Positions 10,501-57,859 of a stretch of DNA of 64,000 bases are shown one piece after another. Under the pieces are notes generated by a model. That model was not told where the DNA came from, made no database searches, and was given only the letters and a program-made list of their open reading frames with translations. Both the position numbers and the translations under genes were made by a program. Source of the stretch: Candidatus Omnitrophota bacterium (lineage in GTDB: Bacteria > Omnitrophota > Gorgyraeia > Duberdicusellales > 4484-171). Numbering within the stretch: the stretch's first letter is position 1; each line of letters starts with the position of its first letter. The DNA is taken from the NCBI GenBank assembly GCA_037146775.1, contig JBAWWL010000003.1:133956-197955 (forward strand), in the 5' to 3' direction.

Positions 10501-10545
10501 ACCAGAAAACAGAAAACAGGGGACAGATAACAGAAAATCTGTCTT
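10501..10545. repeat. Heptad repeat element (RACAGAA)n ending in a 7-bp hairpin gacagat/atctgtc (site A)
   Basis: 'accagaa aacagaa aacaggg gacagat aacagaa aatctgt'. It has a 7-nt period. Confidence 0.5.
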
Positions 10546-10580
10546 TGCGTTATCCGCTGTATTCTGAATAAACAAAACTT

Positions 10581-25290: not shown

Positions 25291-25420
25291 GCCCAGCTCC
25301 GCTTTCCATGAGAATGGTCACGCCTTGTGGCTACAGCTACTCGCTGCGTTTCCGCTTTTGGTGAGCCTCGTCTTCGGCGGGAAACTTTGTCGAAGCGGGC
25401 GAACCCCCCTTTTACTTATT

Positions 25421-25565
25421 AAACCCGAAACACTAAACCCTAAATCCTAAATAAACTCAAAACGAAAAAATAAAAATTCAAAACGATACTATTTTGAGTT
25501 TGAAATATTTAAGTTTTTGGTTGTTTGTTTGTTTAGGATTTAGGGTTTGAGGTTTAGAGTTTATG
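25421..25565. repeat. Long AT-rich inverted repeat (about 60-nt arms) between convergent genes; bidirectional terminator-like
   Basis: 'aaaccctaaatcctaaataaactcaaaa' ... 'ttttgagttt...tttaggatttagggttt'. The arms are exact reverse complements over 17 nt or more. It is preceded by a short GC-rich segment at 25291-25400. Confidence 0.6.
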
Positions 25566-25638
25566 GTAAGAAGTTACTATTACATCTAGGCCAACGCGGG
25601 TATCGTTTTTGCTGTCACCAAAGAAGATTTTATTATGT

Positions 25639-30687: not shown

Positions 30688-30859
30688 ACGAGGTTTTATA
30701 GGTTTAGTCTTTATTTCTCCGGTGAGAATGTATCAATGTCATCACAGGCGAGTGTGCATCGCCTTGCCGCAGGGGAAAGAGGCATACGGATTGTCTGTAA
30801 TGTGTGAGGGGTATATTGTTTCGGTTGAGACATAAAGACTTTGCAGGGGAGTATTGATA

Positions 30860-32437
30860 ATGAAAAAAATAGCCATATACGACACGACATTACGTGATGG
30901 CGCACAGACAGAAGGAATCTCTTATTCGCTGCACGACAAAATTACCATCACCAAACGTTTGGATGAGTTTGGTGTAGATTTCATTGAAGGAGGCTGGCCG
31001 TACTCAAATCCTAAAGATAAAGAGTTGTTTAAGTATTTTAAGAAAAACCCTTTACGCAATTCCCAGCTTGTTCCTTTTGGTTCTACCGCTCATCCCGCGC
31101 ATGCAGCTTCGGAAGATAAAAATTTGCTCAGTCTCATTGCTGCCGGGACAGAGTGGGTGACTATCTTTGGCAAAACGTGGGATTTGCATGTCGAGGAAAT
31201 CTTAAAAATAAAGCCAGAAGATAATTTAAAAATTATTTATGAAAGTGTAAAATTCTTAAAGAAGAAAGGAAAAAAAGTTTTTTATGATGCTGAGCATTTC
31301 TTTGACGGCTACAAAGCCAACCCCTCCTATGCGCTTAAGACCGTAGAAGCAGCCATATCCGGCGGTTGTGATTTGCTTGTGTTTTGTGATACTAACGGCG
31401 GCACGCTTCCCTGGCATGTACAGGAAGTCGTTAAGGGCGTGAAAAAACAGCTTTGCTTGGAACATTTTGGTATCCATTGCCACAATGATTTAGGTCTTGC
31501 CTTGGCGAATTCGCTTATCTCCATACCCGATGGCTTAGAGCAAATTCAAGGTACTATTAACGGCTATGGTGAGCGCTGTGGCAACACCGATTTGATACTG
31601 GTGATGGGAATATTGCAGCTGAAAATGAATTACGAACCGTTATTTCCCAAAAAAATGGCAGAGCTAACCAAACTCTCTCATGTTATAAGCGAAATCAGCA
31701 ATATGGCTCAGCGAGATAACCATCCTTTTGTGGGAAGCAGCGCCTTTGCCCATAAGGGCGGTATCCATATTGATGCAGTTATTAAGAATCCTCTTGCCTA
31801 TGAACATATTGATCCCGTATCGGTGGGTAATAAGCGCCGTTTTCTCGTTTCGGAATTAGCCGGGAAATCCACACTGGTCATAAAAGCAAAAGAGCTGGAA
31901 TTTGATTTGGATAAGAAATCTGCTCAGGCAAAGAAGATACATAAACTAATTCAAAAATTAGAGAAGCAGGGATATCAGTTTGAAGCCGCCGAAGGATCAT
32001 TCAAACTACTTCTGCAAAAGGAATTTAAAAAGTATAAGAAATTTTTTGATTTGTTGGGTTTTCGGGTCAGCGTGGAGAAACGAGAGGATGGCAGATTGAT
32101 TTCCGAAGCGGTGGTGAAACTGAAGATACAGAACAAACTGGAACATAGTGCCGCCGAGGGAGATGGCCCGGTAAACGCGCTTGATAACGCCCTACGCAAG
32201 GCGCTTAAGAATTTCTATCCAACCTTGTCTAAAATGCACCTCACTGATTTTAAAGTAAGGGTTTTGGACGAAAAAAGCGGAACTGCCGCCAAAGTACGGG
32301 TATTGATTGAATCCCAAGATGAAAACGAAGACTGGTCAACCATTGGCGTCTCCGAAAACATTATTGAGGCTTCTTGGAATGCGCTGGTTGACTCGGTAGA
32401 GTATAAACTGTTGAAAGATTTACACGCCCAAGAGTGA
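30860..32437 (+). CDS. cimA: (R)-citramalate synthase (LeuA-family)
   Basis: It has 'IAIYDTTLRDGAQTEG' and 'HCHNDLGLALANSL'. It is about 525 aa with a C-terminal LeuA-dimer regulatory domain, distinct from the true leuA at 37912. Confidence 0.75.
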   Translation: MKKIAIYDTTLRDGAQTEGISYSLHDKITITKRLDEFGVDFIEGGWPYSNPKDKELFKYFKKNPLRNSQLVPFGSTAHPAHAASEDKNLLSLIAAGTEWVTIFGKTWDLHVEEILKIKPEDNLKIIYESVKFLKKKGKKVFYDAEHFFDGYKANPSYALKTVEAAISGGCDLLVFCDTNGGTLPWHVQEVVKGVKKQLCLEHFGIHCHNDLGLALANSLISIPDGLEQIQGTINGYGERCGNTDLILVMGILQLKMNYEPLFPKKMAELTKLSHVISEISNMAQRDNHPFVGSSAFAHKGGIHIDAVIKNPLAYEHIDPVSVGNKRRFLVSELAGKSTLVIKAKELEFDLDKKSAQAKKIHKLIQKLEKQGYQFEAAEGSFKLLLQKEFKKYKKFFDLLGFRVSVEKREDGRLISEAVVKLKIQNKLEHSAAEGDGPVNALDNALRKALKNFYPTLSKMHLTDFKVRVLDEKSGTAAKVRVLIESQDENEDWSTIGVSENIIEASWNALVDSVEYKLLKDLHAQE

Positions 32438-32612: not shown

Positions 32613-34250
32613 ATGAAATATTATATTATTTATATAGCGGTACTTATGACAGCATTCATTACTCGTAGTGTGTATGCTGAAACGGTTACTCTTAAGTCAG
32701 GAAAAATCGTGCAAGGCAAGGTTCTTGAACAAACCGATGTGTACCTTGTTATGGAAATTTCTGGATTAGAAATAAAATACTATCTCGACGAGATAACAAG
32801 TATAGACGGTAAAGTGCTTGCTTCTGTTATTCCCGGAACCCAGCCACCGGACTCTTCGCAGAATATACCCGGCTTAGAGCAAACATTCCAAGATGCAGAC
32901 GTGGGATACTCGCTCGGTTATCCGTCCAGTTGGGAACTTGTACCTGATGCGGAGAAGAAAAAAGGTTGTAGCGTGAGCCTGCGTTCAAAGAAAATCAGCC
33001 GTAGCGAACCGGCGGTATACCTGTCTTTACAACAAGGCAATTACAGCGAAGATAAACTAAAAGATAAAAATACCATGAGTGATCTGTTGAGCCTTTTGCC
33101 TTTGCCGCGGGAGTTAAAACAAGAATCAGCGGATGCCGTTACCATACATCAGGATTCCTGGCTTTTTATGCGTTACACGCAAAATATTCCCTATACCCTT
33201 ACCAACGTCGACGAAAAAGGAAATAGCTTGAACGGTTTTATGACCAGCTATTATGATTATTATTTCTTTTCTCCGGTATTTGTTTCGCAAGGCAAAAACA
33301 AAAGATTTTTTCTTATCGAGGTGTATTATCTTAAATTCAATCCGTTGGCCGAAGACAGTAACAGCAGCATAACCAAAACGATTATTGAGAAACACATGTT
33401 ATCTAATGACCGTTATAATGAGAACGTGGATACGCGCAGCAAAGAAGCCAGGATGGTTGTTGACTCATTTCGTTACCGGCCAAGCGATTCGTCGCCGGAG
33501 CAGGCTGTGTCTTCGGCTGTAGAAAAGAAGGCGTCTCAAGTTCCTTCGGTCAGCGTAAAACTTTCTTTAGGTAAACTTAAGGAGGCACAGGATTATCTGC
33601 AGCGCGGCAGAAACTATCTGATAGATAAGAAATATCAGGATGCGATTATACAGATCCAGAAAGCGCTTGCTATTAACCCGCAGGATGCGTTTGCTTACGT
33701 TAGTTTGGGCGAAGCCTACGGAGCCTTAGGGAATAATAAGCAAGCCGTAGAGTATTTTCGAAAAGCCATGGATATTATTCCTAATTACCTTGAAGCCTAT
33801 GCGGGTTTAGGGTATGTGTATATCGCTTCCGGACAACAACAGGAAGCAGTTGCTGTGTTTCAAAAAGCTACCGAAATTAACCCCAAGTATGCCGAAGGTT
33901 ACCGGGGGTTGGGATATATCTATTCAAGACTTGGCCAATACGATCCGGCCATCACTCAATATCAGAAAGCTTTGAAGATAGACCCGAACAACGTCTATTA
34001 TAATAAAGAAATAGGTTTTCTGTATGTTTCCCTGGGTCAATACCGAGAAGCGATCACCTACTTCCAGAAGGCAATCAAACTTAATCCGGAATATGCCGAA
34101 GGTTACACCGGTTTAGGGTTTGTATATTATTCTCTTGGCCAGAATCAAAATGCAAAAGAACACTTTCAGAAGGCCAGGCAGCTTTTCAGAAATAAACAGG
34201 ACATGGAAGGGGTAAAAATAATAGAGGAATACCTCAAAAAGATCCCCTAA
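32613..34250 (+). CDS. Secreted TPR-repeat protein with conserved N-terminal beta-domain
   Basis: It has a signal peptide, then 'AETVTLKSGKIVQGKVLEQ...YYLDEITSIDGK'. It has C-terminal TPRs ('AFAYVSLGEAYGALGNNKQAVEYFRKA' and similar). The N-domain is paralogous to the 49480 gene. Confidence 0.7.
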   Translation: MKYYIIYIAVLMTAFITRSVYAETVTLKSGKIVQGKVLEQTDVYLVMEISGLEIKYYLDEITSIDGKVLASVIPGTQPPDSSQNIPGLEQTFQDADVGYSLGYPSSWELVPDAEKKKGCSVSLRSKKISRSEPAVYLSLQQGNYSEDKLKDKNTMSDLLSLLPLPRELKQESADAVTIHQDSWLFMRYTQNIPYTLTNVDEKGNSLNGFMTSYYDYYFFSPVFVSQGKNKRFFLIEVYYLKFNPLAEDSNSSITKTIIEKHMLSNDRYNENVDTRSKEARMVVDSFRYRPSDSSPEQAVSSAVEKKASQVPSVSVKLSLGKLKEAQDYLQRGRNYLIDKKYQDAIIQIQKALAINPQDAFAYVSLGEAYGALGNNKQAVEYFRKAMDIIPNYLEAYAGLGYVYIASGQQQEAVAVFQKATEINPKYAEGYRGLGYIYSRLGQYDPAITQYQKALKIDPNNVYYNKEIGFLYVSLGQYREAITYFQKAIKLNPEYAEGYTGLGFVYYSLGQNQNAKEHFQKARQLFRNKQDMEGVKIIEEYLKKIP

Positions 34251-34414
34251 CACAGCTTCTAAATCTCAATTCTATCATCATTTATCTGATATATTTACAT
34301 GGTTTTTGAAGAGAAAAAGCAGTTGTTGTCTTTTCGTTTTGAAGTGATATAATTGGATATTTATTAGCCGGGATATAGGCACAAGTATACCCCATTATTA
34401 AAGGATTAATCCAT

Positions 34415-36079
34415 ATGAACGGAGCACGAATACTCATTGAGTCGCTTTTAAAAGAAAAGGTAGAGGTAATGTTTGGTTATCCTGGCGGCCAGGTTTTGCC
34501 AATTTTTGACGCGTTATACGATGCTCCGATCAGGTTTATCTTGACGCGCCACGAACAAGCTGCAGCCCACGCTGCCGATGGTTACGCCCGGGCAACGGGT
34601 AAAGTGGGTGTGTGCCTTGCGACGAGTGGCCCTGGCGCGACTAATTTGACCACAGGCATCGCTACCGCCTACATGGATTCTATCCCGATGGTCGCTATTA
34701 CCGGCCAGGTGAAGACGTTTTTGATCGGTAACGACGCTTTTCAGGAAGCAGATGTTACCGGTATTACCCGGCCTATAACGAAACACAATTATTTAGTTAA
34801 AGATATAAAAGATTTGGCGCGTATTATACAGGAAGCTTTTCATATTGCTTCTACCGGCAGGCCCGGCCCGGTATTAATCGATATCCCCAGTGATATCCAA
34901 CAGCAGAACTATGAATTTATTTGGCCGGAGGAAGTTAATATTAAAGGCTATAAACCAACATATTTCGGCCATCCCGGACAAATCAAAAGAGCGGCAAAAT
35001 TAATCGTTCAGGCAAAAAGGCCTATTATTTATGCCGGTGGAGGGGTTATCACTTCCGGTGCCCATCGGGAATTAAAAATATTGGCAGAAAAGATAAAGGC
35101 TCCGGTGACCATGACCTTGATGGGTTTGGGAGGATTTCCCGGTACCCACGAACTTTCTTTGGGAATGCTCGGTATGCACGGCACCGCATATGCCAACCAC
35201 GCTATTATGGAGTCAGACTTGATCATTGCCGTCGGCGCGCGTTTTGACGACAGGGTTACCGGACGGCTTGACGCTTTTGCGAAAGGCGCAAAGATAATAC
35301 ATATTGACGTTGATCCGTCGTCAATCAGCAAAAATGTCGGTGCGGAAATTCCGGTCGTCGGCGACGCGAGAAATATTTTAGGCCAGTTGCTAGAAGAAAT
35401 AAAAAAAGTTCCCGATACAAAAGAATGGCTTAAGACTATAGAAGGCTGGAAGAAAAAATATCCTCTCTCTTATAAAGATAAAACGAAAATCAGCCCCCAA
35501 TATGTCATGGAACAAATTTATAGTATAACTGCCGGTGACGCTATTATAGCCACCGAGGTCGGACAACATCAAATGTGGGCAGCGCAATGGTACAAATATC
35601 TTTATCCGCGCACGTTTATTTCCAGCGGCGGATTGGGCACTATGGGGTTTGGTTTTCCCGCAGCCATGGGTGCGAAGATTGCTTTTCCCGAAAAATTGGT
35701 TTTTGATATTGCCGGCGATGGCTCTATTCAGATGAACATACAGGAGTTGGCTACCTGTGTGTGTAATAAGATAAACGTGAAGGTAATTATATTTAATAAT
35801 GGTTATTTAGGCATGGTGCGGCAGTGGCAGGAATTGTTTTATAAAAAGCGCTATTCTCATGTGTGTATTACCGCGCCAGATTTTGTGAAGTTGGCGCAAA
35901 GCTACGGTGCCGAAGGAATCCGCATTACTAAAAAAGAAGAAGTGCGCAAAGCTTTGGAGAAAGCCATGAGTATAGATAACACGGTGTTTGTCGATATTCA
36001 GGTTGAGCCGGAAGAGAATGTATTTCCGATGGTTCCGGCAGGAGAAGCTATCAACCGGTTCATCGGCGGGTTGGCCTAG
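34415..36079 (+). CDS. ilvB: Acetolactate synthase large subunit
   Basis: It has TPP motifs '[14 protein letters not shown]' and '[14 protein letters not shown]'. It is 554 aa. Confidence 0.9.
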
Positions 36080-36137
36080 GAATATTAAGAATCAAAAATA
36101 AGATATAAGTTTTTTATTTTTAGAGGTATAAAGACGG

Positions 36138-36608
36138 ATGAGACATACAATTTCAGTTATAGTCGAAAATAAACCGGGAGTATTGGCACGCATTTCAGGA
36201 TTATTCAGCGCGCGAGGTTACAATATTGCTTCTTTAGCGGTGAGCGAAACATTGGATCCTACCATATCCTATATGACTATGGTGGTGGACGCAGAGGACG
36301 AGCGTATTTTAGAGCAGATAAAAAAACAGCTTAATAAGCTTATCGACGTTATCACCGTTACTGATTTTACTAAAAAAGAACATGTCGAGAGAGAATTAAT
36401 TCTAGTAAAAGTGAACTATGCTGCAAAAGAGAAGAGTAAACTGACAGCTATTTTAAATAAATATATGGCGAAAATAGTGCTTCATAATGCGGATACGGCT
36501 ATTATTGAGGCAGTAGGTGAGCAGGAAGTTATCAAGCAATTGTTGGTCGTGTTGGATAAGATTGGAATAAAAGAATTAATTAGGACAGGAAAAATAGCCA
36601 TCGCTTAG
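36138..36608 (+). CDS. ilvN: Acetolactate synthase small (regulatory) subunit
   Basis: It has an ACT domain ('ISVIVENKPGVLARISGLFSARGYNI'). It is 156 aa and directly follows ilvB. Confidence 0.85.
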   Translation: MRHTISVIVENKPGVLARISGLFSARGYNIASLAVSETLDPTISYMTMVVDAEDERILEQIKKQLNKLIDVITVTDFTKKEHVERELILVKVNYAAKEKSKLTAILNKYMAKIVLHNADTAIIEAVGEQEVIKQLLVVLDKIGIKELIRTGKIAIA

Positions 36609-36609
36609 G

Positions 36610-36693
36610 AAACAGAGGACAGATATCAGAGGTCAGAGGACAGAAGTCAGACGTCAGGTGTCAGAAGACAGAAAAAAGAAGTCAGAATCATAA
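36610..36693. repeat. Tandem heptad repeat (GNCAGAN) x about 12, 7-nt period (site B) in the ilvN-ilvC spacer
   Basis: 'aacagag gacagat atcagag gtcagag gacagaa gtcagac gtcaggt gtcagaa gacagaa aaaagaa gtcagaa'. Confidence 0.7.
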
Positions 36694-36718
36694 CAGTTGA
36701 ATAATAAGGAGGTAGAAG

Positions 36719-37711
36719 ATGGCACAGGTGTATTATGACAAGGACGCGGATCTTGATTTATTAAAAGGCAAAACCATCGCTATCATCGGCTACGGTATTC
36801 AGGGTCGCGGCCAGGCGTTGTGTTTACGCGATACGGGCTGTACCGTAATTGTTTCGGAGCTTTCAGGTACACCGAACTATGAGCAGGCAAAGAAAGATGG
36901 TTTTAATCCTGTTTCTGCCGCTCAGGCCGCTACAGAAGGAGACATTATCCAGATTTTAACTCAAGATCATGTACAGGCGAAAGTGTACGCAGAACATATT
37001 AAGCCAAACCTGAAAAAAGGAAAAGCGCTTTGTTTTTCGCACGGATTTAATATCCGTTTTAAACAGATAAAACCGCCAAAAAATGTAGACGTCTTTATGG
37101 TTGCTCCTAAGGGCCCAGGAGCTTTGGTGCGGCGTATGTATGAGGAAGGTAAGGGTGTTCCTTGTTTAGTCGCAGTTTTCCAGGATGGATCAGGCCAGGC
37201 AAAACAGCTTGCGCTTGCTTATGCGAAAGCCATCGGCGGTACTCGCATGGGAGTTATTGAAACAACTTTTGCGGAAGAGACCGAAACCGATTTATTTGGT
37301 GAACAGGCGGTGCTTTGCGGTGGTGTCAGTGAGCTGATCAAGGCTGGTTTTGATACTTTGATCGAAGCAGGATATCAACCGGAGATTGCTTATTTCGAAG
37401 TACTACACGAATTAAAGCTCATTACAGATTTAATACAGGAATTTGGTATCAGCGGAATGCGGCGCCGAGTTTCCAATACTGCGTGTTACGGTGATCTCAC
37501 CAGGGGGCCGATGGTAGTTAACGAAAAAACACGTAAAACCATGCAAAAGATTCTTAAAAGTATCCGCTCGGGAAAGTTTGCGCGGGAATGGATCAAAGAA
37601 AATGAAGCCGGCAGAAAGAATTTTGATAGCCTTTTGAAGAAAGGCGATGAACACAAAATAGAACAAGTAGGAAAACAGCTTCGGGAAATGATGCCTTGGA
37701 TGAAAAAATAG
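36719..37711 (+). CDS. ilvC: Ketol-acid reductoisomerase
   Basis: It has '[23 protein letters not shown]' and '[12 protein letters not shown]'. The RBS is 'aaggagg'. Confidence 0.9.
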
Positions 37712-37756
37712 ATCCTTCGGTTGCTTTGCAGCCTCAGGATTAATTCGCACTATTAT

Positions 37757-37806
37757 TTTTTTGCGTGCCTTTGACACTTGGAAAAATAATGTGCTTATTA
37801 AAATGA
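37757..37806. repeat. About 48-nt AT-rich palindromic element (copy 2), 45 nt after the ilvC stop
   Basis: 'gcactattatttttttgcgtgcctttgacacttggaaaaataatgtgc' is near-identical to 3449-3498. Confidence 0.5.
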
Positions 37807-37827
37807 TGCCCTGGATGAAAAACAAAT

Positions 37828-37898
37828 AACAGAAGACAGAAAACAGAAGTCAGATAATTTTTTTCTGACCTCTGTCATCTGATATCTGACTTCTGAAT
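37828..37898. repeat. Heptad repeat element in hairpin configuration (site C): four direct RACAGAA heptads, a T-run loop, five inverted heptads
   Basis: 'aacagaa gacagaa aacagaa gtcagat aattttttt ctgacct ctgtcat ctgatat ctgactt ctgaata'. Confidence 0.65.
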
Positions 37899-37911
37899 AA
37901 CTTTGATGCCA

Positions 37912-39408
37912 ATGGAAAAGATTATAATATTTGATACGACATTGCGCGACGGAGAACAGGCGCCGGGCGCTTCCTTGACCTCAGAGCAAAAACTTGAGGT
38001 GGCATGTCAATTGGAAAAGCTTGGGGTTGATATTATTGAGGCCGGTTTTCCTATTGCCAGCCCCGATGATTTTAAAGCGGTAAGTACCATTGCCCGGGTT
38101 ATTAAACATTGCGCGGTATGTGGTTTAGCGCGCTGCGTCAAGGCGGACATTGAAGCAGCGGGCAATTCTTTAAGGAAAGCGAAGCGTCCGCGTATCCACA
38201 TTTTTCTTGCCACTTCCAAGATTCATCTACAATATAAATTTCACAAAGTTGAAGAAGAAATTTTAACATTAGCTAAACAGGCAATTCAAATGGCAAGAAA
38301 GCATTGTGATGATATAGAATTTTCTCCCGAAGACGCCACGCGTACCGAACGAGATTTTCTTTTCCGTGTGATAGAAACCGCTATCAAAGAAGGGGCGAAA
38401 ACGATCAATATACCCGACACTGTCGGTTATAGCTATCCGCAAGAAATTCATTCGTTGATTATGGATATTATCAACAACGTTCCCAATATAAACCAAGCCA
38501 CCCTTTCAATTCATTGTCATGATGACTTAGGAATGGCAACTGCGAATTCTTTATCGGCCATTTTAGCCGGTGTGCGCCAGGTACATTGTACGATTAACGG
38601 TATAGGCGAACGTGCCGGAAACGCTTCGTTGGAAGAAATTGTTATGGCGCTTAAAACCCGGCGCGATGCATTTGAACATTTCAGCAACGGTATTAACACA
38701 AAAGAATTGTATCGTACTTCGAGATTGGTTAGTGTTTCAACCAGCTTTGTGGTGCCTCCCAATAAAGCCATTGTGGGCGAAAATGCCTTTCGCCATGAGT
38801 CGGGGATTCACCAGGACGCAATGCTTAAAAAACGCACCACTTACGAGATTATGGATCCCAAAGATGTGGGAATAGAAAGCAGTGAACTGGTATTAGGAAA
38901 GCATTCCGGAAGACACGCTCTTTGTGCGCGGCTCAAACATCTCGGTTTGCAGTTGGATGAAAGAAGAGTTGAGACAGTTTTTAAGAAATTTAAAGAACTT
39001 GCCGATAAGAAGAAAGAGATATTTGACGAAGATTTGGTTACGTTAGCCGAGGAAGAAACGCGGGAGCATAAGAAAGGTTTCGAACTGGTCTCGGTACAGG
39101 TTATGACCGGTACGGATATCGTTCCTGATGCAACCGTGAAGCTGAAATACAAGAAAAAAATCTATCAAGCTCATTCAGGCGGAGACGGCCCGGTGGATGC
39201 TTGTTATAAGGCGATTGACAAAATTACCAAAATAAAGACGAAGCTGGTAAGTTACAAACTTGAAGCTATTACCAAAGGAAAAGACGCGCAAGGGTTAGTG
39301 AGGGTAGAGTTAAAAGTTGGCGGTAAGGCGGTGAGCGGCCGTGGTGCAAGTACCGATATTTTAGAGGCATCAGCCCGTGCGTATCTTGACGCGTTGAATA
39401 AGATTTAG
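37912..39408 (+). CDS. leuA: 2-isopropylmalate synthase
   Basis: It has 'IIIFDTTLRDGEQAPG' and 'HCHDDLGMATANSL', with a C-terminal regulatory domain. Alternative starts lie at 37903 and 37906. Confidence 0.9.
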   Translation: MEKIIIFDTTLRDGEQAPGASLTSEQKLEVACQLEKLGVDIIEAGFPIASPDDFKAVSTIARVIKHCAVCGLARCVKADIEAAGNSLRKAKRPRIHIFLATSKIHLQYKFHKVEEEILTLAKQAIQMARKHCDDIEFSPEDATRTERDFLFRVIETAIKEGAKTINIPDTVGYSYPQEIHSLIMDIINNVPNINQATLSIHCHDDLGMATANSLSAILAGVRQVHCTINGIGERAGNASLEEIVMALKTRRDAFEHFSNGINTKELYRTSRLVSVSTSFVVPPNKAIVGENAFRHESGIHQDAMLKKRTTYEIMDPKDVGIESSELVLGKHSGRHALCARLKHLGLQLDERRVETVFKKFKELADKKKEIFDEDLVTLAEEETREHKKGFELVSVQVMTGTDIVPDATVKLKYKKKIYQAHSGGDGPVDACYKAIDKITKIKTKLVSYKLEAITKGKDAQGLVRVELKVGGKAVSGRGASTDILEASARAYLDALNKI

Positions 39409-39428
39409 GCAACATGAAAGAGGGTAAT

Positions 39429-39893
39429 ATGCGTTATGTGCTAAATATTATCGCGATTCTTATAGTGGTTGCGATTACAATCGGGATAATCCAGTACCGA
39501 CAACATTCTTCAACGTATCCTTTCGAGGGTACCTTCAAGCAGGCTTACAAAAATCTGGGCAAAACTCTGCGGGCAAAAGAAAAAGAAGTCCTTGTTTCTG
39601 TTTCTCCGGACAGGAAACGAGCTCTTACTTTTATTACCAAGGAAACGGCACTGCGAGAGCTTGTCCCGGAGTTATTCGGCACGTTTGACGAGCAGGAGTG
39701 GGAATACTTCTGGGGACTTCTCTATGATCCAATGGCTATTAAAAAGGGGAAGAAACCCGTTAAAACCTATCGTTCACGGGATGAAATTGAAAGCGTTTTA
39801 CGCGACCGGTATTCCGAGACTCTCGGTTACTATGATGACGCTAAGTGGTTTGCGTTGTGGAAAGCCGCCGGCGTGGATTGGTCACAATGGTAG
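39429..39893 (+). CDS. Hypothetical membrane-anchored protein
   Basis: It has an N-terminal TM 'VLNIIAILIVVAITIGII' and an aromatic-rich soluble domain. It has no family match. Confidence 0.45.
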   Translation: MRYVLNIIAILIVVAITIGIIQYRQHSSTYPFEGTFKQAYKNLGKTLRAKEKEVLVSVSPDRKRALTFITKETALRELVPELFGTFDEQEWEYFWGLLYDPMAIKKGKKPVKTYRSRDEIESVLRDRYSETLGYYDDAKWFALWKAAGVDWSQW

Positions 39894-40726
39894 ATAGTCA
39901 GACAGCATGTTTAGGGTTATTTGGTTTTCCCGTCAAACATTCTCTATCGCCGCGCATTCATCGCTATTTCTCGAAACTGCACCGTATTAACGCCACCTAT
40001 CTTTGTTTTGAAGTTTCACCAGCCCATTTGGAAAAAGCAATTACCGGCGCTAAGGCGCTCGGCCTAAAAGGTTTCAACCTCACCATTCCCCATAAAGAAA
40101 GTATTATCCGTTATCTCGACTGCATTGATCCTGGAGCCAGGCTTATTGGTGCGGTGAATACGGTAAAAATCGAAAACGGTAAGACATTCGGATTTAATAC
40201 TGACGGAGAAGGTTTCCTGCGGCATCTTCAGGAAGAATTGTCGTTCGACCCTCGTCATAAGGATATAGCGATGCTTGGCGCCGGTGGAGCGGCAAGAGCG
40301 GTTTCGGTATATTTGGCCAAAATGCACCCGGCCAGCCTTGCAATATACGATATTGATAAGGCAAAAGCAAAAGCGTTATTGGGTCATCTGAAAGCAAATT
40401 TCAAGCATACCACGTTTCGTTTTGCCTCAAGCGTTATCGCGCTGGATATAGCGCAGTGTGATTTGTTAGTGAATACAACGCCTGTAGGTATGAAGCCGGG
40501 GGATCCTTGTCTTGTTGCCCCCGAACTTTTACATAAAAAGCTCTTTGTATATGATTTAATTTATAATCCCGGAGAAACCAAACTTCTTATGCGTTCACGT
40601 TTGCATGGTTGCCGCATTTCGAACGGTTTAGGAATGTTATTACATCAAGCCGCGCGGTCATTTGAGATTTGGACCGGTAAAAAGATAGCGAAAAGCAGTA
40701 TACAAAAATTACAATCTGCGATATGA
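39887..40726 (+). CDS. aroE: Shikimate dehydrogenase
   Basis: It has 'LFGFPVKHSLSPRIH' and 'MLGAGGAARAV'. The track ORF starts at 39845, but the canonical N-terminus fits the ATG at 39887. Confidence 0.85.
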   Translation: MVDSQTACLGLFGFPVKHSLSPRIHRYFSKLHRINATYLCFEVSPAHLEKAITGAKALGLKGFNLTIPHKESIIRYLDCIDPGARLIGAVNTVKIENGKTFGFNTDGEGFLRHLQEELSFDPRHKDIAMLGAGGAARAVSVYLAKMHPASLAIYDIDKAKAKALLGHLKANFKHTTFRFASSVIALDIAQCDLLVNTTPVGMKPGDPCLVAPELLHKKLFVYDLIYNPGETKLLMRSRLHGCRISNGLGMLLHQAARSFEIWTGKKIAKSSIQKLQSAI

Positions 40727-51545: not shown

Positions 51546-53705
51546 ATGTTCCAGCGATTGATATATACTGGTCGATATGTGTGCTTCTTTGTGTGCAGCA
51601 TGATGGGTATCTCTCCCGCGTTTAGTCAAGTATCCAGCGTGACGGTACCTATCCAGGAGGACACTATGGTTAGAGATATCCAGCGTACCATCGCTGTTTT
51701 ATCCAACACTCACACGCATCTTTCGCCAAGCCATGTTGGGCATCCAGGTTATGGAGATCTTGCTTTTCTCTACGATAAAGCCGTGGACGCACTTGTTTTA
51801 AAGGCAGGAGGATATCAAAAAGAAGCCCAAGCCATTCTTGATTATTTTGCAGCCCGCCTGAAGATTCCTTTCGAGGAAATACGTATGCATGCTGATACGA
51901 ATGATACTTACGGAATTATAAAGATTTTTTCTCCATTTTCAGCCTCCGGCATGCCCACCAAAGCATTAATGAATGCTTTGGATATTACCTCAAACCGCAG
52001 GCAGGGGAAAGCTACCCTTGAATTTTTTACCACACCTGGACCGACCTCATTTCTTATCTTTGCTTTTCTTCAGGTCAACCCAGATATTTATAAAAACGAG
52101 GCGCTGCTGCTAGGAGAGGTTTTACTGGCGATGCAAAACGCAGACGGAGGTATCCGGGATGGTGACCGGTCGCCGGAGAAGGTTCATACCGAACCGCACA
52201 TGGATAGTTATGCCGCATTCATGATGCTGTATCAAATAAGCGGGGATAGTAAATGGGAAATAGCCGCTCATAGAGCTCTTGAGTGGTTTAACGCAAACGT
52301 GTATCATCCCAATGAGGCGGCAATCGATCAAGGTGTGTGGGCACACGCTCCTAATCAGGCGTTTGCTACCGACGCCTACTCCTGGACTATGGCCGGCCCC
52401 TTGGGTGACACGATTTCTCCCGAGATGCTTAAGCGTTTGAGCGAGCGGATGCTTGAAGAGAGTTTAACAAAAATCACCCTTCCGGTTCCTGACGGTACCG
52501 TAAGAACTGTAACGCTCTGTGATTTTAGTAACCCTGAAAGCCAGGTCGTAAAAAATATACGCCAGGGATTCCATCCGATGGGTTCGGTAGAATGGACTGC
52601 GGGGGTAATTCTTGCCCTGCAAAAGAACGCGGTGAGGTTTTGGAATACCGGCGATCGCAAGGCCGCCAGTTTCTATAAAGCCATTGCTCAGATACTTTCT
52701 GGCGAAACAAAAAAATGTTTTTATCGGCTCGATAATACATATATGACATTTTATGCCACAGGCCAGGGTGTCTGCGTTGGCCCTTTCGGTTCAATCTCGG
52801 GGGTAAGTATAGAGGGTTGGAAGACGCCATTTTTCTATGTAAAAAGTAAAGATAACCAGGTGCTGATAAAGGGTGGGAGTTGCGTGGGCGCCTGGATCAT
52901 CCTGCCACATCTTGGCTTCAACCCGTTTATTCTCAATGACCGGTACCATGAAACGTACGGGAAAATACCGCTGACACAAGAAACAACGGATCAGGCTAAA
53001 ATATTTGTAGATAAAATCGCAAGCAAACGTTTTTTTACCGAGGGTGTTATCCGCGAAGCGCCCAGCCCCGACAGCCAGATCGTCGAGCCGGCTTTGTTTA
53101 ATGAAAAAATGTGGGATGCCTTAGAAAAAGGATATGCTCAGCGTACAAGAGGTGATTACGTAAAGGCAGAAATATATTTTCAAAAAGCAGCTTTTTGGGC
53201 ACATAAGGTTGTGGATAATTCGGCTTGGTGCCAGCGCGCGCGGGCCGACAATGCACAGAAAGAAAAAGAAATCGGCGGTATTGTTTCATATCCGTGGGGC
53301 GCTGTCTATCGAGATAATGATCACCCGTTGCATTATGCGGTATTGAGATACCCTTTATTAAACGAAGTTGCTGCTGCGATGTGGGCTTTGGCCACGGTTA
53401 ATTTCGAGCTAGGCCATCCGGAAGAAACAAAATATTGGATTCGGCGTATCATCGATGAGGTTTCTCTGCATCAGATCGCGGATATTAAAAAAGACGGCCA
53501 ACAGGAGGCGCCTGATTTAATCCAGGGATATTGGAATGCGCTTGTTTCTTGGGAAGATAACCCTGGTGGATACGAGCGGGACAAGAAAATCGGCGTGCTT
53601 TATCGGGAAGTATTGCGGGAGAAAAAACTTTCTGGTGCCAAGCCAAAAACAGTAATAGTTCCTGATTTTGTCACAAGAGCCCCCGGGGTTGGGGATCGGC
53701 AGTAA
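51546..53705 (+). CDS. Large hypothetical secreted protein, possibly alpha/alpha-toroid fold
   Basis: It has a signal peptide and repeated helical 'LL.GE.LLAMQNADGGIRDG'-type segments. It is 719 aa and the fold guess is weak. Confidence 0.45.
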   Translation: MFQRLIYTGRYVCFFVCSMMGISPAFSQVSSVTVPIQEDTMVRDIQRTIAVLSNTHTHLSPSHVGHPGYGDLAFLYDKAVDALVLKAGGYQKEAQAILDYFAARLKIPFEEIRMHADTNDTYGIIKIFSPFSASGMPTKALMNALDITSNRRQGKATLEFFTTPGPTSFLIFAFLQVNPDIYKNEALLLGEVLLAMQNADGGIRDGDRSPEKVHTEPHMDSYAAFMMLYQISGDSKWEIAAHRALEWFNANVYHPNEAAIDQGVWAHAPNQAFATDAYSWTMAGPLGDTISPEMLKRLSERMLEESLTKITLPVPDGTVRTVTLCDFSNPESQVVKNIRQGFHPMGSVEWTAGVILALQKNAVRFWNTGDRKAASFYKAIAQILSGETKKCFYRLDNTYMTFYATGQGVCVGPFGSISGVSIEGWKTPFFYVKSKDNQVLIKGGSCVGAWIILPHLGFNPFILNDRYHETYGKIPLTQETTDQAKIFVDKIASKRFFTEGVIREAPSPDSQIVEPALFNEKMWDALEKGYAQRTRGDYVKAEIYFQKAAFWAHKVVDNSAWCQRARADNAQKEKEIGGIVSYPWGAVYRDNDHPLHYAVLRYPLLNEVAAAMWALATVNFELGHPEETKYWIRRIIDEVSLHQIADIKKDGQQEAPDLIQGYWNALVSWEDNPGGYERDKKIGVLYREVLREKKLSGAKPKTVIVPDFVTRAPGVGDRQ

Positions 53706-53754
53706 ACTTAAAAATGATTTGACAGAGATATCTCAGATGGTACATTGACAATTG

Positions 53755-54120
53755 ATGAGCGAGCGTCGGAAGAATATACGGATACATAAATCCCTGATTG
53801 TACGTTTCAAACTTCCCAAGGGTTATCTGGGTATGTCTTCGCGCAGCGACAATATCAGCGAAGACGGAATGCGTATGGGTGCCTTGCAACGGTTTGAGCC
53901 GGGAATGTCTTTGCAGCTAAATTTTAATCTGCAGGAGTATACGGACCCCGTTATCGTTAATGCAACGGTGGTATGGGTGGATTACAAAAAACAAAGTTAT
54001 TTTCCATTTGTCTTAGGTTTACGGTTTATTAATCTCGCTGATTCCGATCGCCCTCGCTTACGTGATTATATTAGCCATGTCGTTAGAGAAGAAAACCTTT
54101 CTATCTCTCCTGGCGCCTAG
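53755..54120 (+). CDS. PilZ-domain protein (c-di-GMP receptor-like)
   Basis: It has 'RRKNIR' (RxxxR) and 'NISEDG' ((D/N)xSxxG) motifs. It is 121 aa. Confidence 0.65.
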   Translation: MSERRKNIRIHKSLIVRFKLPKGYLGMSSRSDNISEDGMRMGALQRFEPGMSLQLNFNLQEYTDPVIVNATVVWVDYKKQSYFPFVLGLRFINLADSDRPRLRDYISHVVREENLSISPGA

Positions 54121-54479: not shown

Positions 54480-54968
54480 ATGAAGAGCGAACGGCTACAA
54501 TATTTAATTAATGAATACAGACTTGTCCAAAAACGCTTATATGAGATCAGGGCTGATTATGAGCGTATGAAAATAACGTTTGAGATTCTTAAAGAGGTTG
54601 AGAAAGAGTTAGGTGAACGCGCGAAGCACGCATCTGATGGCGCAACCGGACAGTATTGGATGGACATTGCCGCCGGGTGTTTTACGGGTGATCAAGACCG
54701 GCCCAACGAAGCGGATTTTAATAAAGCAAAAGAAAAAGTAGAGAAGAACGAGAAATTAATTCTTTACTATGAAACAAAGCTAAATATGATTCGTAGGTTC
54801 TTAGGTGTCCGCGAGACAGACCTGTTTGAAAGCTTTCAGGAGAAAAACATTCTTATGGGAAGTGAGCAGTCTTCTTCGACGAATATGCGCAATGTTCTTC
54901 AGAAAACAGAAGAAGAAGACAAGCTTCGAGATGAACGCAAGAACGACGTTAATTTTAACAAAATGTAA
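54480..54968 (+). CDS. Hypothetical coiled-coil protein
   Basis: Its RBS is 'aaggggagg'. It is helical and charged, with no family match. Confidence 0.4.
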   Translation: MKSERLQYLINEYRLVQKRLYEIRADYERMKITFEILKEVEKELGERAKHASDGATGQYWMDIAAGCFTGDQDRPNEADFNKAKEKVEKNEKLILYYETKLNMIRRFLGVRETDLFESFQEKNILMGSEQSSSTNMRNVLQKTEEEDKLRDERKNDVNFNKM

Positions 54969-54981
54969 GCTTGGGGAGGCC

Positions 54982-55317
54982 ATGGCTATCGAAAGGCATC
55001 TCACGAAAAAGTATCGGTTTCGGCATGTCGGATGTGCACGCGTGTTGTCATTTATTGTTCTGTTATTGTTCTTACATTCGACCATGCAAGTTTATGCTGT
55101 TACTATTCCCGCCGCCTTAGAAAAACTCGGGTTTACCGAAGATGATCTTTTGAATTATCGCCGTCAGGATGAGCAAGAGTTTTTTACTTTTTCCGATAAA
55201 CGGACTCGCGAGAGGCAGGACGTTATTACTTTTGTAATCGAAAATGGTGAAATTATTGCCTATCCGAACCCGATGGTCGAGAAGAAAGAGGATAAACGCG
55301 ATAGCCTAGATATGTAA
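54982..55317 (+). CDS. Small hypothetical secreted protein, paralog A (EFFTF...ITFVIENG family)
   Basis: Its RBS is 'ggggagg'. It has a signal/TM 'VLSFIVLLLFLHS' and 'LEKLGFTEDDLL...EFFTFSDKRTRERQDVITFVIENGEII'. It is paralogous to the 57575 gene. Confidence 0.5.
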   Translation: MAIERHLTKKYRFRHVGCARVLSFIVLLLFLHSTMQVYAVTIPAALEKLGFTEDDLLNYRRQDEQEFFTFSDKRTRERQDVITFVIENGEIIAYPNPMVEKKEDKRDSLDM

Positions 55318-55497
55318 AAAAGCACTCCCTTAATGCAAGCGTATTATAGCTGCCAAAACGATCTTCGTCCGTTTTCCCATAAAACCTGCGGTGTTATTTG
55401 AGGTTTTTGTCTATCATCCATTCGGTTTTAATGGAGTAGGCAGGTACAAAAAACTTTATAATATTGGAAAAAAATAAGAGGCTATTTTTGAGCAGGA

Positions 55498-55725
55498 TTA
55501 TCTTTCGTCGGTAGCCTCATCGACAGACTGACCTTTTTTAAGCGGGGATCCTTCCTGGAGCGTATTTTCTTTTTCGTAGGTTTGGCAACTTTTAGAAGCG
55601 AACGAGAGAACGGCGAGTAACACAATTACAAGGATTATTACAAAGAAATAAGGGTATATCGTTACGTTTTTAATTTTCATATACCAGATTATATCAAACA
55701 TACATTTTTTGTCAAAATATATCAA
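55498..55725 (-). CDS. Small hypothetical membrane protein (doubtful)
   Basis: It is the only ORF in a 550-bp gap. It has one TM 'YPYFFVIILVIVLLAVLSF'. Confidence 0.3.
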   Translation of the reverse strand: MIYFDKKCMFDIIWYMKIKNVTIYPYFFVIILVIVLLAVLSFASKSCQTYEKENTLQEGSPLKKGQSVDEATDER

Positions 55726-55888
55726 TTTTATGACTGCGCGGTACCTGGCAGGGCGGCAGTTTATTAAACTGCTATAATTTTAATAAGGGGAATGGTATAA
55801 TTAAAAAGTACGTACATGATAATCACGATTTCATTATTAAACTACAGCGTCTTTAATTTTATTCTTGGCCGAAACGATTATTTTTAAA

Positions 55889-56314
55889 ATGAGTTTATTA
55901 AAAAAAATAGCATGGTTGGTTCTGGGGGTAATTTTTGTCCCGCTGGCTATGTTCCTGCTTTTACTGATAGTGCGTACTTTTTTCCCCACGCTGCGGTATG
56001 CGGCAGAACAGGTATTTTTGGTAATATGGATCGGTGTGCTAAGCGCTACAATTCTTTTAGCAATAATTGTTAGGAAGAAAAAAGAATCGTTTTCAAACGG
56101 ATTATTGGTTTCGGCAGCCATCGCCCTCATCGTAAGTTTCGTGGCCTTGCTTTTGCATGTATACAATTATACAAAACTGAATTATCTAAAAGTGGAGAAT
56201 GAGAGTCTTATGTTAAAAACTAAAAGTCTAAAAGAAGAAATATCCGGCTACAAGAAAAGAATTAAAGAATACGAAGAAAATTCTGACTTGCGAAGAAAGC
56301 TTCCGGGTGATTGA
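55889..56314 (+). CDS. Hypothetical two-TM membrane protein with C-terminal coiled-coil
   Basis: It has hydrophobic segments followed by 'LKVENESLMLKTKSLKEEISGYKKRIKEYEE'. Confidence 0.4.
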   Translation: MSLLKKIAWLVLGVIFVPLAMFLLLLIVRTFFPTLRYAAEQVFLVIWIGVLSATILLAIIVRKKKESFSNGLLVSAAIALIVSFVALLLHVYNYTKLNYLKVENESLMLKTKSLKEEISGYKKRIKEYEENSDLRRKLPGD

Positions 56315-56532
56315 GGTCTTTGGCCGGGTGAGCGATGCATTCTTGATGCGTTCGTTGGTGCGTTCCTTCGGCAGGCTCAGGACGCTCAAGTAATGTCGGA
56401 GCGAAACCACGCCTTTTAAGGCGCGAAACATACGCTCGCCGCTTGGTATGGTTTCGGCTATGGCTCAGCCAAGTGCCCAGTCTCCCGTGCAAACCCCTGG
56501 ATTAAAACTTGGGGAAAGTCGAATGGGTTGAT

Positions 56533-56567
56533 TTTTCTTTCTTGACCAATCTTTACTATGGCAGTAT
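56533..56567 (+). promoter_or_regulatory. Sigma70-like promoter TTGACC-17-TATTAT, copy 1 of a duplicated promoter
   Basis: 'cttgaccaatctttactatggcagtattatttttt' is near-identical in its 3' half to 58998-59032. Confidence 0.4.
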
Positions 56568-56707
56568 TATTTTTTCGATCGCTTACGAAAACAGATCGGT
56601 AGGAAAATTTTATATCAGTCAGGTATGATCCGGACGGCGGTTTTATAATTCTTGAAAATAAGCTTCTATAGGAGTAATTTCTTCTAACTTTTAAGGAGGG
56701 TATTGCG

Positions 56708-57019
56708 ATGAGAAAAGCCAAAATTTTAGGTTCATTGGCCGTGATTATGTTGTTTTGTCCGCTCGTCATTTTTGCCCAAAGTTCCGGAGAAAAAAATGAG
56801 CCTGTGATGGGGGATGTTAAAAAAGACAAGCAGATAGAGAAAGAACGTATGATTGGTATGGCGATGAATATGTTGGGGATGATGCAAAAACAAATAGTCG
56901 CTACCGGTGACGGCGGAGCTATTGTTTTATTGGGTAATAAACTTCTCAAATATGATAAAGATTTAAACCTTATAAAGGTAGTTGAATTAAAGGCCGACGT
57001 TGCGCCTGTGCAGAAATGA
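56708..57019 (+). CDS. Small hypothetical secreted Met-rich protein
   Basis: Its RBS is 'aaggaggg'. It has a signal peptide and 'MIGMAMNMLGMMQKQ'. Confidence 0.4.
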   Translation: MRKAKILGSLAVIMLFCPLVIFAQSSGEKNEPVMGDVKKDKQIEKERMIGMAMNMLGMMQKQIVATGDGGAIVLLGNKLLKYDKDLNLIKVVELKADVAPVQK

Positions 57020-57158
57020 TGAAAACCAAAGCCGAAATTAGGCAAAAGGAAAAAAGAGTAATATTGGCTCTTTCTGCAGAAGGTTTTGATGGGTCTGCAA
57101 CCAGATTAAGACAATGCTCGCAGGGCGAGGTTATTTTTTAGCCATGGAGGTAGCCGAC

Positions 57159-57578: not shown

Positions 57579-57859
57579 GGAAGTTTTTATTGCTGCTAAT
57601 CTTCATTTTTCTTCCTTTTTTTTCGGTATTCGCCCAAAAGATACCCGATAGACTGCGCATACCGAAAGAATTGGAAGAGTTAGGATTTACCCGTTCCTTT
57701 CTTGTTGAATACAAAAAGATTGCCGATAAAGAATTCTTTACTTTTGATAATTGGAGAACAGCGCAAGGCCTGGACACTATAACTTTTGTGATTGAAAATG
57801 GTAAGGTGAAAGATGTATTCAAAGGTAAGAGAATAAAATTAAAGGAGAGAGGCACATGA
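57575..57859 (+). CDS. Small hypothetical secreted protein, paralog B (EFFTF...ITFVIENG family)
   Basis: It has a signal peptide and 'LEELGFTRSFLV...EFFTFDNWRTAQGLDTITFVIENGKV'. Confidence 0.5.
   Translation: MRKFLLLLIFIFLPFFSVFAQKIPDRLRIPKELEELGFTRSFLVEYKKIADKEFFTFDNWRTAQGLDTITFVIENGKVKDVFKGKRIKLKERGT

Follow-up and report, generated by a model that had tools for sequence, protein, structure and literature searches.

Heptanucleotide repeat arrays at intergenic sites of an Omnitrophota ilv-leu region belong to a widespread class of bacterial 7-bp repeats

A 64-kb stretch of DNA from a Candidatus Omnitrophota bacterium (contig JBAWWL010000003.1, positions 133,956 to 197,955; hereafter the window) carries tandem heptanucleotide arrays at three intergenic sites, of which site A follows a DUF4912 gene and sites B and C lie inside an ilv-leu cluster, in the ilvN-ilvC and ilvC-leuA spacers, respectively. 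They fall into a class of bacterial heptanucleotide repeats that is already known and has no functional explanation. The initial annotation of this DNA had preferred to see in them an RNA element read by an attenuation protein that contacts evenly spaced triplets. On balance we consider it probable that they are instead RWCAGAN arrays of a widespread bacterial 7-bp class, generated via slippage and polar inverted duplication, and that no dedicated ilv-leu attenuator is present. Functional statements throughout this work are drawn from sequence.

The three intergenic heptad sites were recovered at the positions first annotated (Table 1). A scan of the window for CAGAN3CAGAN3CAGA with at most one mismatch gave 18 matches, compared to 0.11 expected, and all of them are located inside sites A, B and C. 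The strict 7-nt period was confirmed by a motif-agnostic column-conservation scan, which required at least four of seven columns to be invariant across four units and which revealed arrays at period 7 alone, with none at periods 5, 6 or 8-11. Tandem Repeats Finder likewise returned period 7 at each of the three sites and, at site B, also periods 21 and 28, which score better than 7. Pfam analysis placed the sites among genes for DUF4912, a GH57 branching enzyme, ilvB, ilvN, ilvC and leuA.

Site A begins at the first base past the DUF4912 stop codon. As described in the initial annotation, it consists of five heptads with a hairpin end, the direct arm being followed by partial inverted units (TCTGTCT..GCTGTAT TCTGAAT), and the whole folds with -21.3 kcal/mol (z = -4.7). 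The hairpin ends 14 nt before the ATG (10581) of the GH57 gene, which has no Shine-Dalgarno sequence. No T run follows the stem on its 3' side, where the next bases are AATAAACAAAACTT, as read directly outside the terminator scan. Site B starts 2 nt past the ilvN stop codon (36606-36608) and stops some 25 nt short of the ilvC ATG (36719), with the ilvC Shine-Dalgarno sequence AAGGAGG intact downstream of it. About 12 perfect-register heptads had been counted here, of which 11 stand in exact register and the 12th is degenerate. Within these 11 units the columns C, A, G and A are invariant in 9-11 units and the remaining three positions take 2-4 states, so that CAG recurs at strict 7-nt spacing, with exact 4-nt spacers, in 10 of the 11; the array is weakly structured (fold z = -2.7). 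Site C showed the predicted architecture of four direct heptads, a T-run loop and five inverted heptads, folding with -23.2 kcal/mol (z = -4.3). Its T run sits in the loop, none being found 3' of the stem, and its 3' arm ends 13 nt before the probable ATG (37912) of leuA, a gene without a Shine-Dalgarno sequence. The open reading frame (ORF) lister gives a TTG at 37903 as the leuA start, and homologues begin MEK.., which points to the ATG at 37912.

Table 1 Position and composition of repeat arrays and other structured elements in the window and in loci of other genomes (L numbers)
Feature	Sequence	Position	Strand	Composition
Site A, direct arm	Window	10501..10535	+	Five heptads: ACCAGAA AACAGAA AACAGGG GACAGAT AACAGAA
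Site A, whole imperfect hairpin	Window	10503..10566	+	CAGA arm pairs with TCTGTCT..GCTGT..TTCTG
Site B, direct array	Window	36611..36687	+	11 in-register heptads RWCAGAN, no inverted partner: AACAGAG GACAGAT ATCAGAG GTCAGAG GACAGAA GTCAGAC GTCAGGT GTCAGAA GACAGAA AAAAGAA GTCAGAA; then a degenerate 12th
Site C, 5' arm	Window	37828..37855	+	Four heptads: AACAGAA GACAGAA AACAGAA GTCAGAT; degenerate unit before
Site C, loop	Window	37856..37863	+	AATTTTTT
Site C, 3' arm	Window	37864..37898	+	Five inverted heptads: TCTGACC TCTGTCA TCTGATA TCTGACT TCTGAAT
Second heptad family	Window	25418..25566	+	(TAAACCC/TAAATCC)n, central region, (GGATTTA/GGGTTTA)n; long hairpin
Non-heptad structured element after ilvC stop	Window	37712..37800	+	P1 37712-37740; AATTCG 37742-37747; A/U-rich P2 37748-37793; CTTATTA
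Mini-ORF (MMPWMKNK*)	Window	37803..37829	+	ATGATGCCCTGGATGAAAAACAAATAA; duplicate of last 8 codons of ilvC; stop codon adjoins site C array
RecG in-frame arrays	L038	4125-4150, 4721-4746		Unit ATTCAGA
LeuRS in-gene array	L103	464-489
RecJ in-gene array	L068	6739-6764
CbiG-methylase fusion in-gene array	L027	2046-2078
TilS in-gene array	L041	2719-2744
AATTCG-hairpin-CTCATT copy	L128	~14801-14854	-
AATTCG-hairpin-CTCATT copy	L145	~3484-3536	-
AATTCG-hairpin-CTCATT copy	L133	2108-2160
AATTCG-hairpin-CTCATT copy	L130	3749-3812
AATTCG-hairpin-CTCATT copy	L137	4117-4168

The arrays turn over at orthologous spacers. No exact copy of the ilvC of the window was found in public assemblies, and almost every named sequence among its best matches (85-96% identity) comes from a Candidatus Omnitrophota metagenome-assembled genome. 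Synteny around ilvBNC-leuA is conserved and the spacers are not. The ilvN-ilvC spacer measures 110 nt with 11 heptads in the window, compared to 88 nt of unrelated sequence in L001, the closest relative (96% ilvC identity), 25 nt in L004 and 17 nt in L128, and site B is absent from all three; in L007 it spans 109 nt and has two CAGA heptads only, right after the stop codon. The ilvC-leuA spacer is 200 nt long in the window and 50 nt long, without heptads, in L001. In L004 and L128 it is filled by a 71-nt hairpin composed of four TCAGnnn and four CTGAnnn units, to which hairpins in L007 and L133 are related, and a TCAG/CTGA heptad hairpin thus occupies this spacer in five lineages (the window, L004, L128, L007 and L133). 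Elsewhere the same two junctions hold other units, such as TCAGSNN, GGTCTTA and CTAAATC hairpins (L143), AGCGTAT (L129), TAGTNNA (L140) and AGTATTG/CAATACN (L178). Many lineages have 0-25 nt only at these junctions, and many ilvC-leuA spacers of 3-36 nt are empty. Site A is kept in L208/L209 at the same length, with 62 of 80 positions identical (78%) and heptads partly decayed, and is replaced by unrelated spacers of 40-66 nt in relatives at 82-85% identity. Given that L001 and L209 originate from the same metagenome and show equal divergence from the window, one relative appears to retain site A yet to lack sites B and C. Turnover was seen only where synonymous sites have substantially diverged, and conspecific contigs from different samples (99.6-100% identical) carry identical arrays without indels, by which a hypermutable contingency-type microsatellite was rejected at short range. 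The initial annotation had made its case depend on the arrays being present in orthologous spacers of close relatives. Sites B and C are absent from L001 and absent or replaced in most others.

The period-7 excess, whatever the unit, is a property of whole genomes and not of the ilv operon. Across 391 kb of Omnitrophota loci, 32 period-7 arrays were detected, compared to 1, 4, 0, 0, 0 and 0 arrays at periods 5, 6, 8, 9, 10 and 11, respectively, and none in shuffled sequence. They are built from at least 10 unrelated units. All except three of the 32 lie between co-directional genes, where arrays start 0-8 nt past the stop codon, sometimes providing the stop themselves, and where hairpin types leave 0-5 nt up to the start codon. 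Several unit families coexist in one genome (CAGA and TAAACCC in the window, at least four within 20 kb of L143, where a stretch of 4 kb already contains four), and the same family can be repeated within a genome, three times in the window and in L140, twice in L145, whose two array copies share their first 20 nt, and twice in the recG gene of L038.

A cross-phylum scan for four consecutive WCAGANN units, with one genome per species, yielded at least 120 matches, compared to about 17 estimated by chance (36 bits, 1.2e12 positions). Bacteroidota, Verrucomicrobiota, Planctomycetota, Acidobacteriota, Desulfobacterota, Cyanobacteria, Nitrospirota, Chloroflexota, Omnitrophota and others are represented among the matches listed, and viral contigs also gave at least 120 matches. 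The 844 kb around the matches listed contain at least 319 period-7 arrays, against 3-15 for periods 5, 6, 8 and 9, and at least 150 of these 319 have units unrelated to CAGA. A comparison set comprising the ilvC loci of more distant taxa (645 kb) has 14 period-7 arrays only. In the cross-phylum loci, among the matches listed, 37% of the CAGA arrays are inside crude ORFs, which make up 84% of the bases. In-frame arrays were found inside housekeeping genes encoding LeuRS, RecJ, RecG (two arrays of the same unit), TilS and a CbiG-methylase fusion. These arrays have the appearance of a duplicated local 7-mer and insert 7-residue repeats into the proteins. Random scattering of the arrays, including inside genes and with no transcript-level effect, had been named in advance as evidence against a regulatory element; CAGA arrays do occur in many phyla, on viral contigs and in frame within housekeeping genes. 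In two loci of other phyla (L068 ~6765-6800 and L093 ~6310-6350) heptad arrays adjoin G+C-rich hairpin repeats of the type cccctcaccccc..ggggggatgggggg, indicating that different small repeat families cluster at the same sites. Tandem copies, non-coding bias, coexisting families, turnover and a core with variable positions, the features of bacterial intergenic heptanucleotide repeats (STRR-type repeats or heptameric simple sequence repeats), were all observed here.

The reading in which an attenuation protein recognises the spaced triplets was confronted with the same data. Scanning of 34000-40000 for intrinsic terminators and promoters revealed none at sites B or C, with counts equal to the shuffled expectation, and the arrays do not have the G+C-rich stem followed by a U tract of an intrinsic terminator. 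Rfam at gathering thresholds returned no matches in the whole window, and a relaxed Rfam search of 36550-37950 (E up to 5) gave sub-threshold noise only, with no T-box or leader RNA. The mini-ORF product MMPWMKNK contains no Leu codons, so that no Leu-rich leader peptide is encoded there. Unpaired CAGA arrays between co-directional genes divide into 11 sense and 17 antisense (p = 0.34), and unpaired arrays of any unit show no preference for the sense strand either (G>C in 66 vs 51). With respect to geometry, the proposed likeness to HutP and TRAP sites stands in part: CAG every 7 nt at site B fits the HutP spacing, and TRAP, which reads with a period of 5-6 nt, does not fit arrays that are strictly of period 7. 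Overlap with a terminator or antiterminator and conservation with the operon, which go with HutP sites, were not seen at site B, and many array units in relatives and in the cross-phylum loci have no NAG. A search for the cognate protein had been recommended, and among the about 60 ORFs of the 64-kb window Pfam identified no HutP, TRAP, cold-shock, S1/KH, ribbon-helix-helix (RHH) or Y1-transposase domain, which is weak evidence against an RNA-binding protein. A HutP/TRAP-type ilv-leu attenuator is thus not supported, in view of array turnover, more than 10 units, the lack of strand bias in unpaired arrays, the lack of a terminator and the occurrence of arrays in genes and on viral contigs. Part of the more general idea of a cis-acting RNA element survives, for the ilvC-leuA hairpin of relatives, which appears to be under strong purifying selection (see below). 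Units acting as 'all-frame stoppers' were also rejected, as the sense strand of sites A and B has no stop codon within the repeat unit.

Hairpin-type sites gave z values of -3.6 to -7.1 relative to shuffled controls. In relatives, heptad hairpins fold with -30.4 (L004), -44.4 (L007), -43.0 (L133) and -47.5 kcal/mol (L145), and their stems typically comprise about 6 bp plus one mismatch per heptad. L004 and L128 provide the one good lineage pair for a test of constraint. Their third codon positions are 60% (ilvC) and 57% (leuA) identical, and the 71-nt hairpin spacer between these two genes is identical at 67 of 71 positions (94%) without an indel, compared to 14-73% identity and mostly unequal lengths in the other 16 orthologous spacers. 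The four differences are confined to the two flanks and to the apical loop or its closing pair. Spacer identity of 94% at about 58% synonymous-site identity suggests that such hairpins are constrained once present and that, in L004 and L128, the ilvC-leuA hairpin would be under strong purifying selection, comparable to that on amino-acid-changing sites.

A second regularity of the hairpins is their polarity. All 29 close inverted CAGA pairs among the matches listed and the Omnitrophota set read 5'-(CAGA)n..(TCTG)n-3' and none the reverse, 14 of the pairs lying in genomes and 14 in viral contigs among the matches listed, and one in the Omnitrophota set. When hairpins of all heptad units are pooled, G exceeds C in the 5' arm of 37 of 40 informative pairs (p = 2e-8); admitting loops of up to 90 nt gives 47 of 52 pairs with the G-rich arm 5', with the proviso that some pairs share a locus (41 pairs from 31 loci). 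Where the unit is other than CAGA, the arm richer in G+T is 5' in 20 of 22. The polarity holds in co-directional contexts (24:5) and, taken together, in divergent, convergent, in-ORF and contig-edge contexts (23:0), and, because the configuration reads the same on both DNA strands, it is independent of gene or replication orientation. Selection on the downstream initiation region was ruled out as its cause, since the polarity is also found in convergent, divergent and in-ORF contexts, and so was Rho-avoidance as a general cause, given that G>C is not favoured on the sense strand of unpaired arrays. Similar folding is expected of the two configurations, and the polarity therefore points to directional generation or to recognition of the hairpin. 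Neither this polarity rule nor the selection test was met in the heptad-repeat literature, in which no search was aimed at either.

In the explanation that we favour, slippage combined with polar inverted duplication, arrays would lengthen through slippage or unequal exchange, by 7 nt or by several units at a time, as indicated by the 21- and 28-nt super-periods of site B and by the in-gene arrays that resemble local 7-mer duplications. Hairpins would originate by polar inverted duplication; in its simplest version, a G-rich nascent strand would fold back, pair with itself by G.T or G.A and copy itself. The elements would then persist where the harm is small. Of 25 lineages, 23 have a leuA gene without a Shine-Dalgarno sequence, among them those whose spacer is 3-7 nt long, and ilvC has such a sequence in 27 of 28, which suggests that leuA translation may be coupled to ilvC. 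At the ilvC-leuA and DUF4912-GH57 junctions the downstream gene without a Shine-Dalgarno sequence presumably relies on the upstream ribosome, and a hairpin that spans the spacer would hold the stop and start codons close together and be opened by the terminating ribosome. Such a hairpin would thus be tolerated and would afterwards have to stay folded, which could impose purifying selection on its stem even if it brought no benefit at first. Site B may be an unstructured purine-rich spacer upstream of the intact ilvC Shine-Dalgarno sequence.

Several points weigh against this explanation. The same unit family is found at several spacers per genome, which is beyond local slippage alone. Although the site B array has nothing to pair with, its CAG(A) core is invariant and resembles a constrained recognition core, and the L004/L128 stem is conserved in sequence, more than a purely structural role needs. 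The step size of 7 is left unexplained by the model, and both the fold-back origin and the role in translational coupling are inferred. In addition, the source genome is seen as this 64-kb window only, gene calls in foreign loci are crude longest-ORF calls, and the cross-phylum loci were ascertained via the CAGA pattern. It is the step of 7, the recurring families, the site B core and the sequence conservation in L004/L128 that keep two competing accounts alive, a mobile element and a protein-binding track. The first of these, in which heptad hairpins are non-autonomous REP/REPIN- or MITE-like mobile elements copied by an enzyme encoded elsewhere and direct arrays are their remnants, is possible and somewhat unlikely. 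A protein that recognises one hairpin form would match the strict polarity (29:0 and 47:5), and the genome-specific multi-copy families (with the first 20 nt shared by the L145 copies), the rapid gain and loss, the insertions inside genes, including the same unit twice in one recG, and the presence on viral contigs are all in keeping with mobility. However, no shared flanks or termini beyond the array and no target-site duplications were seen, unit number is continuous and many arrays are unpaired, the in-gene arrays resemble local 7-mer duplications, and there are too many families per genome for the usual pattern of one RAYT per family; an internal 7-nt periodicity is foreign to REP elements, and the window has no transposase. 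The REP-like repeat family that the initial annotation offered as its alternative is accordingly nearer to the evidence than the attenuator, whereas the specificity to this lineage that it assumed is contradicted by occurrence in many phyla and on viral contigs. A more far-reaching account of the hairpins, which we also hold to be rather doubtful, treats them as a distinct class across phyla, in bacteria and viruses, written 7 nt at a time by a directional process indifferent to sequence and later co-opted as stem-loops gating the translation of genes without a Shine-Dalgarno sequence such as leuA. Such a writer, which may be self-templated fold-back synthesis or a patchily distributed dedicated enzyme, would account for the invariant period together with the near-absolute polarity with the G-rich arm 5'. 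If it exists, being heptad-rich would be an inherited trait of a genome, one whose genetic cause could be identified.

It is unlikely that an oligomeric nucleic-acid-binding protein uses the arrays as binding tracks, occupying one core per 7 nt within a regulatory network that includes ilv-leu, even though site B, with 10 CAG triplets and exact 4-nt spacers, has HutP geometry. A core of 4-5 nt is kept and 2-3 positions vary, similar to GGGANTN of Xanthomonas (PMC4692102), the same family is found at several sites per genome, the L004/L128 hairpin is conserved at the sequence level, and proposals in the literature point the same way (S1, Csp or CsrA, PMC4679880; a global regulator or IHF/HU, PMC2700814). 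The candidates would be HutP-like, cold-shock, S1 or KH-type proteins on RNA and omega-type RHH proteins or IHF/HU on DNA, with action at the post-transcriptional or the nucleoid level. Against them, more than 10 unrelated units and at least four families in 20 kb of L143 would demand many cognate proteins, the arrays are dispensable at orthologous spacers, and unpaired arrays have no mRNA-strand bias; housekeeping genes and viral contigs also carry arrays, neither a terminator nor an antiterminator is seen with them, and no HutP, TRAP, Csp, RHH or S1/KH gene is among the about 60 ORFs of the window. Far less credible is a leucine-specific riboregulator of leuA at site C, for instance one in which CUGA/CAG heptads sense tRNA-Leu or the state of the ribosome and the heptad form is incidental. 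It could draw on the TCAG/CTGA hairpin in the ilvC-leuA spacer of five lineages, on the strong L004/L128 conservation and on the conservation of non-heptad elements in the same spacer (83/93 between L134 and L141). The units are nevertheless shared with sites A and B and with unrelated contexts in many phyla, the ilvC-leuA spacer is an empty 3-36 nt in many lineages, neither Rfam search gave a credible family, there is no terminator, and the mini-ORF is without Leu codons, while roughly half of all heptads would contain a Leu codon by chance.

Other elements of the window deserve mention. A second heptad family forms the TAAACCC hairpin (-48.7 kcal/mol, z = -7.1) between convergent genes for a PMT-family protein and a GCD14-type methyltransferase, and it is taken as an insertion because the same two genes overlap, with zero spacer, in the relative L007. 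The TAAACCC unit is identical to the plant telomere repeat, and this family also occupies the ilvN-ilvC spacer of L143; the hairpin in the window and its L143 relative are among the few with the C-rich arm 5'. Between the PMT stop codon and this hairpin, the segment 25291-25417 is G+C-rich and contains short inverted repeats (..ggtgagcctcgtcttcggcgggaaactttgtcgaagcgggcgaacccccc). In the ilvC-leuA spacer, upstream of site C, the layout P1-AATTCG-P2-CTTATTA followed by a copy of the ilvC 3' end recurs in L130, L137, L134 and L141, and the duplicated ilvC 3' end is kept in these four with synonymous-type variation. Between L134 and L141 this non-heptad element is identical at 83 of 93 positions, with third codon positions 44-50% identical (saturated synonymous divergence). 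The AATTCG-hairpin-CTCATT module is also found elsewhere, dispersed in Omnitrophota loci, with 6 structured copies, whose stems are not alike in sequence, compared to 0 in shuffled sequence. Its flanks are conserved (GGRAT-WAATTCG ... CTCATTT), it occurs in both orientations relative to genes, its stem covaries (GCC/GGC, CAC/GTG, GACA/TGTC), and a relaxed Rfam search gave no credible match to it. Two HMGL-like/LeuA_dimer genes (30854-32437 and 37912-39408) lie in the same cluster, are both conserved in relatives and are probably a citramalate-synthase-like paralogue and leuA, respectively. Further downstream, a 719-residue ORF (51546-53705) and a run of small ORFs (54480-58957) have no Pfam match, and PilZ-domain genes at 53752-54120 and 59177-59557 flank this Pfam-less stretch.

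Compared with known systems that share part of this geometry, the arrays differ in definable ways. HutP reads NAG triplets spaced by 4 nt, giving a period of 7, in blocks of three, and TRAP reads 9-11 (G/U)AG triplets with 2-3 nt spacing; their sites lie in 5' leaders beside a terminator, are conserved with the operon and need the cognate protein, unlike the arrays described here. The operators of omega-type RHH proteins from inc18 plasmids consist of contiguous direct or inverted 7-bp repeats at promoters, with one RHH dimer per heptad. This geometry is alike, whereas the present arrays lie between cistrons instead of at promoters, and the window contains no RHH gene. REP, BIME and REPIN elements of Enterobacteria and Pseudomonas are short imperfect palindromes in intercistronic and 3' regions that form genome-specific, strain-variable families, and REP elements may stabilise the upstream mRNA or modulate the downstream cistron. 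They have a fixed length, are associated with RAYT and lack an internal 7-nt periodicity; the arrays here vary in length and, with palindromes and multi-copy families in common with REP/REPIN elements, have no shared termini and no RAYT gene in the window.

Nearer matches come from described heptanucleotide repeats. As cited in PMC4692102, heptameric repeats were found in 2007 to be over-represented in many bacterial genomes, and STRR heptamers are known from Calothrix; one hypothesis ties the heptamer excess, which in many bacteria is seen among long simple-sequence repeats, to the polymerase footprint (PMC4692102). The repeats of Xanthomonas (GGGAATC), Nostoc (GGGGAYT) and Calothrix share with the present ones the period of 7, a core with variable positions and the non-coding bias (Rehm 2015, PMC4692102). 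In the case of Xanthomonas and Nostoc the likeness extends to close species that differ at the same spacer (Xcc vs Xac), some inverted pairs, transcription and the lack of an identified function (PMC4692102), but the units belong to other phyla and can form G-quadruplexes, which CAGA units cannot. Reporter deletions of Nostoc heptamer arrays had modest effects that are hard to interpret (bioRxiv 10.1101/2022.06.06.494920). TAACTGA direct repeats in marine Beggiatoaceae, Cyanobacteria and Bacteroidetes, for which S1, Csp or CsrA were proposed as readers (MacGregor 2015, PMC4679880), are overwhelmingly intergenic heptamers, often adjoining start codons without a Shine-Dalgarno sequence, and their complement TCAGTTA shares TCAG with the units described here. 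They also show indels in 7-nt steps, absence from the spacers of close relatives (Cyanothece, Gramella) and intermixed heptamers of other kinds (PMC4679880). The Beggiatoa repeats differ in being mostly perfect, short (2-6 units) and strongly oriented to the downstream start, with one inverted pair only, compared to imperfect arrays with a core and variable positions, and many hairpins, in this study.

Our literature search found no report of heptad repeats in Omnitrophota. As no function or generating mechanism has been established for heptanucleotide repeats, the arrays are not to be annotated as an ilv-leu attenuator. The unit-independent period-7 excess, the polarity with the G-rich arm 5' and one hairpin apparently under purifying selection offer new handles on the puzzle that these repeats pose. 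The closest described precedent is in Geobacter metallireducens, where 'class 3 global regulator binding sites' comprise eight opposite-strand pairs of five tandem MTYCTGA heptanucleotides, annotated as predicted sites of a global regulator, with IHF/HU also proposed (PMC2700814). One of these pairs is found in the proB-proA spacer, which has no such pair in G. sulfurreducens (PMC2700814). Five-unit arrays in opposite-strand pairs correspond to the heptad-hairpin layout, site C having 4 + 5 units, when compared via the published consensus, and the core YCTGA/TCAGR is shared with sites B and C. The full MTYCTGA/TCAGRAK consensus is fitted by 2 of the 11 units of site B and 1 of the 5 units in the 3' arm of site C, and Geobacter belongs to another phylum. 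Like site C at ilvC-leuA, the proB-proA pair occupies an intercistronic junction of an amino-acid operon.

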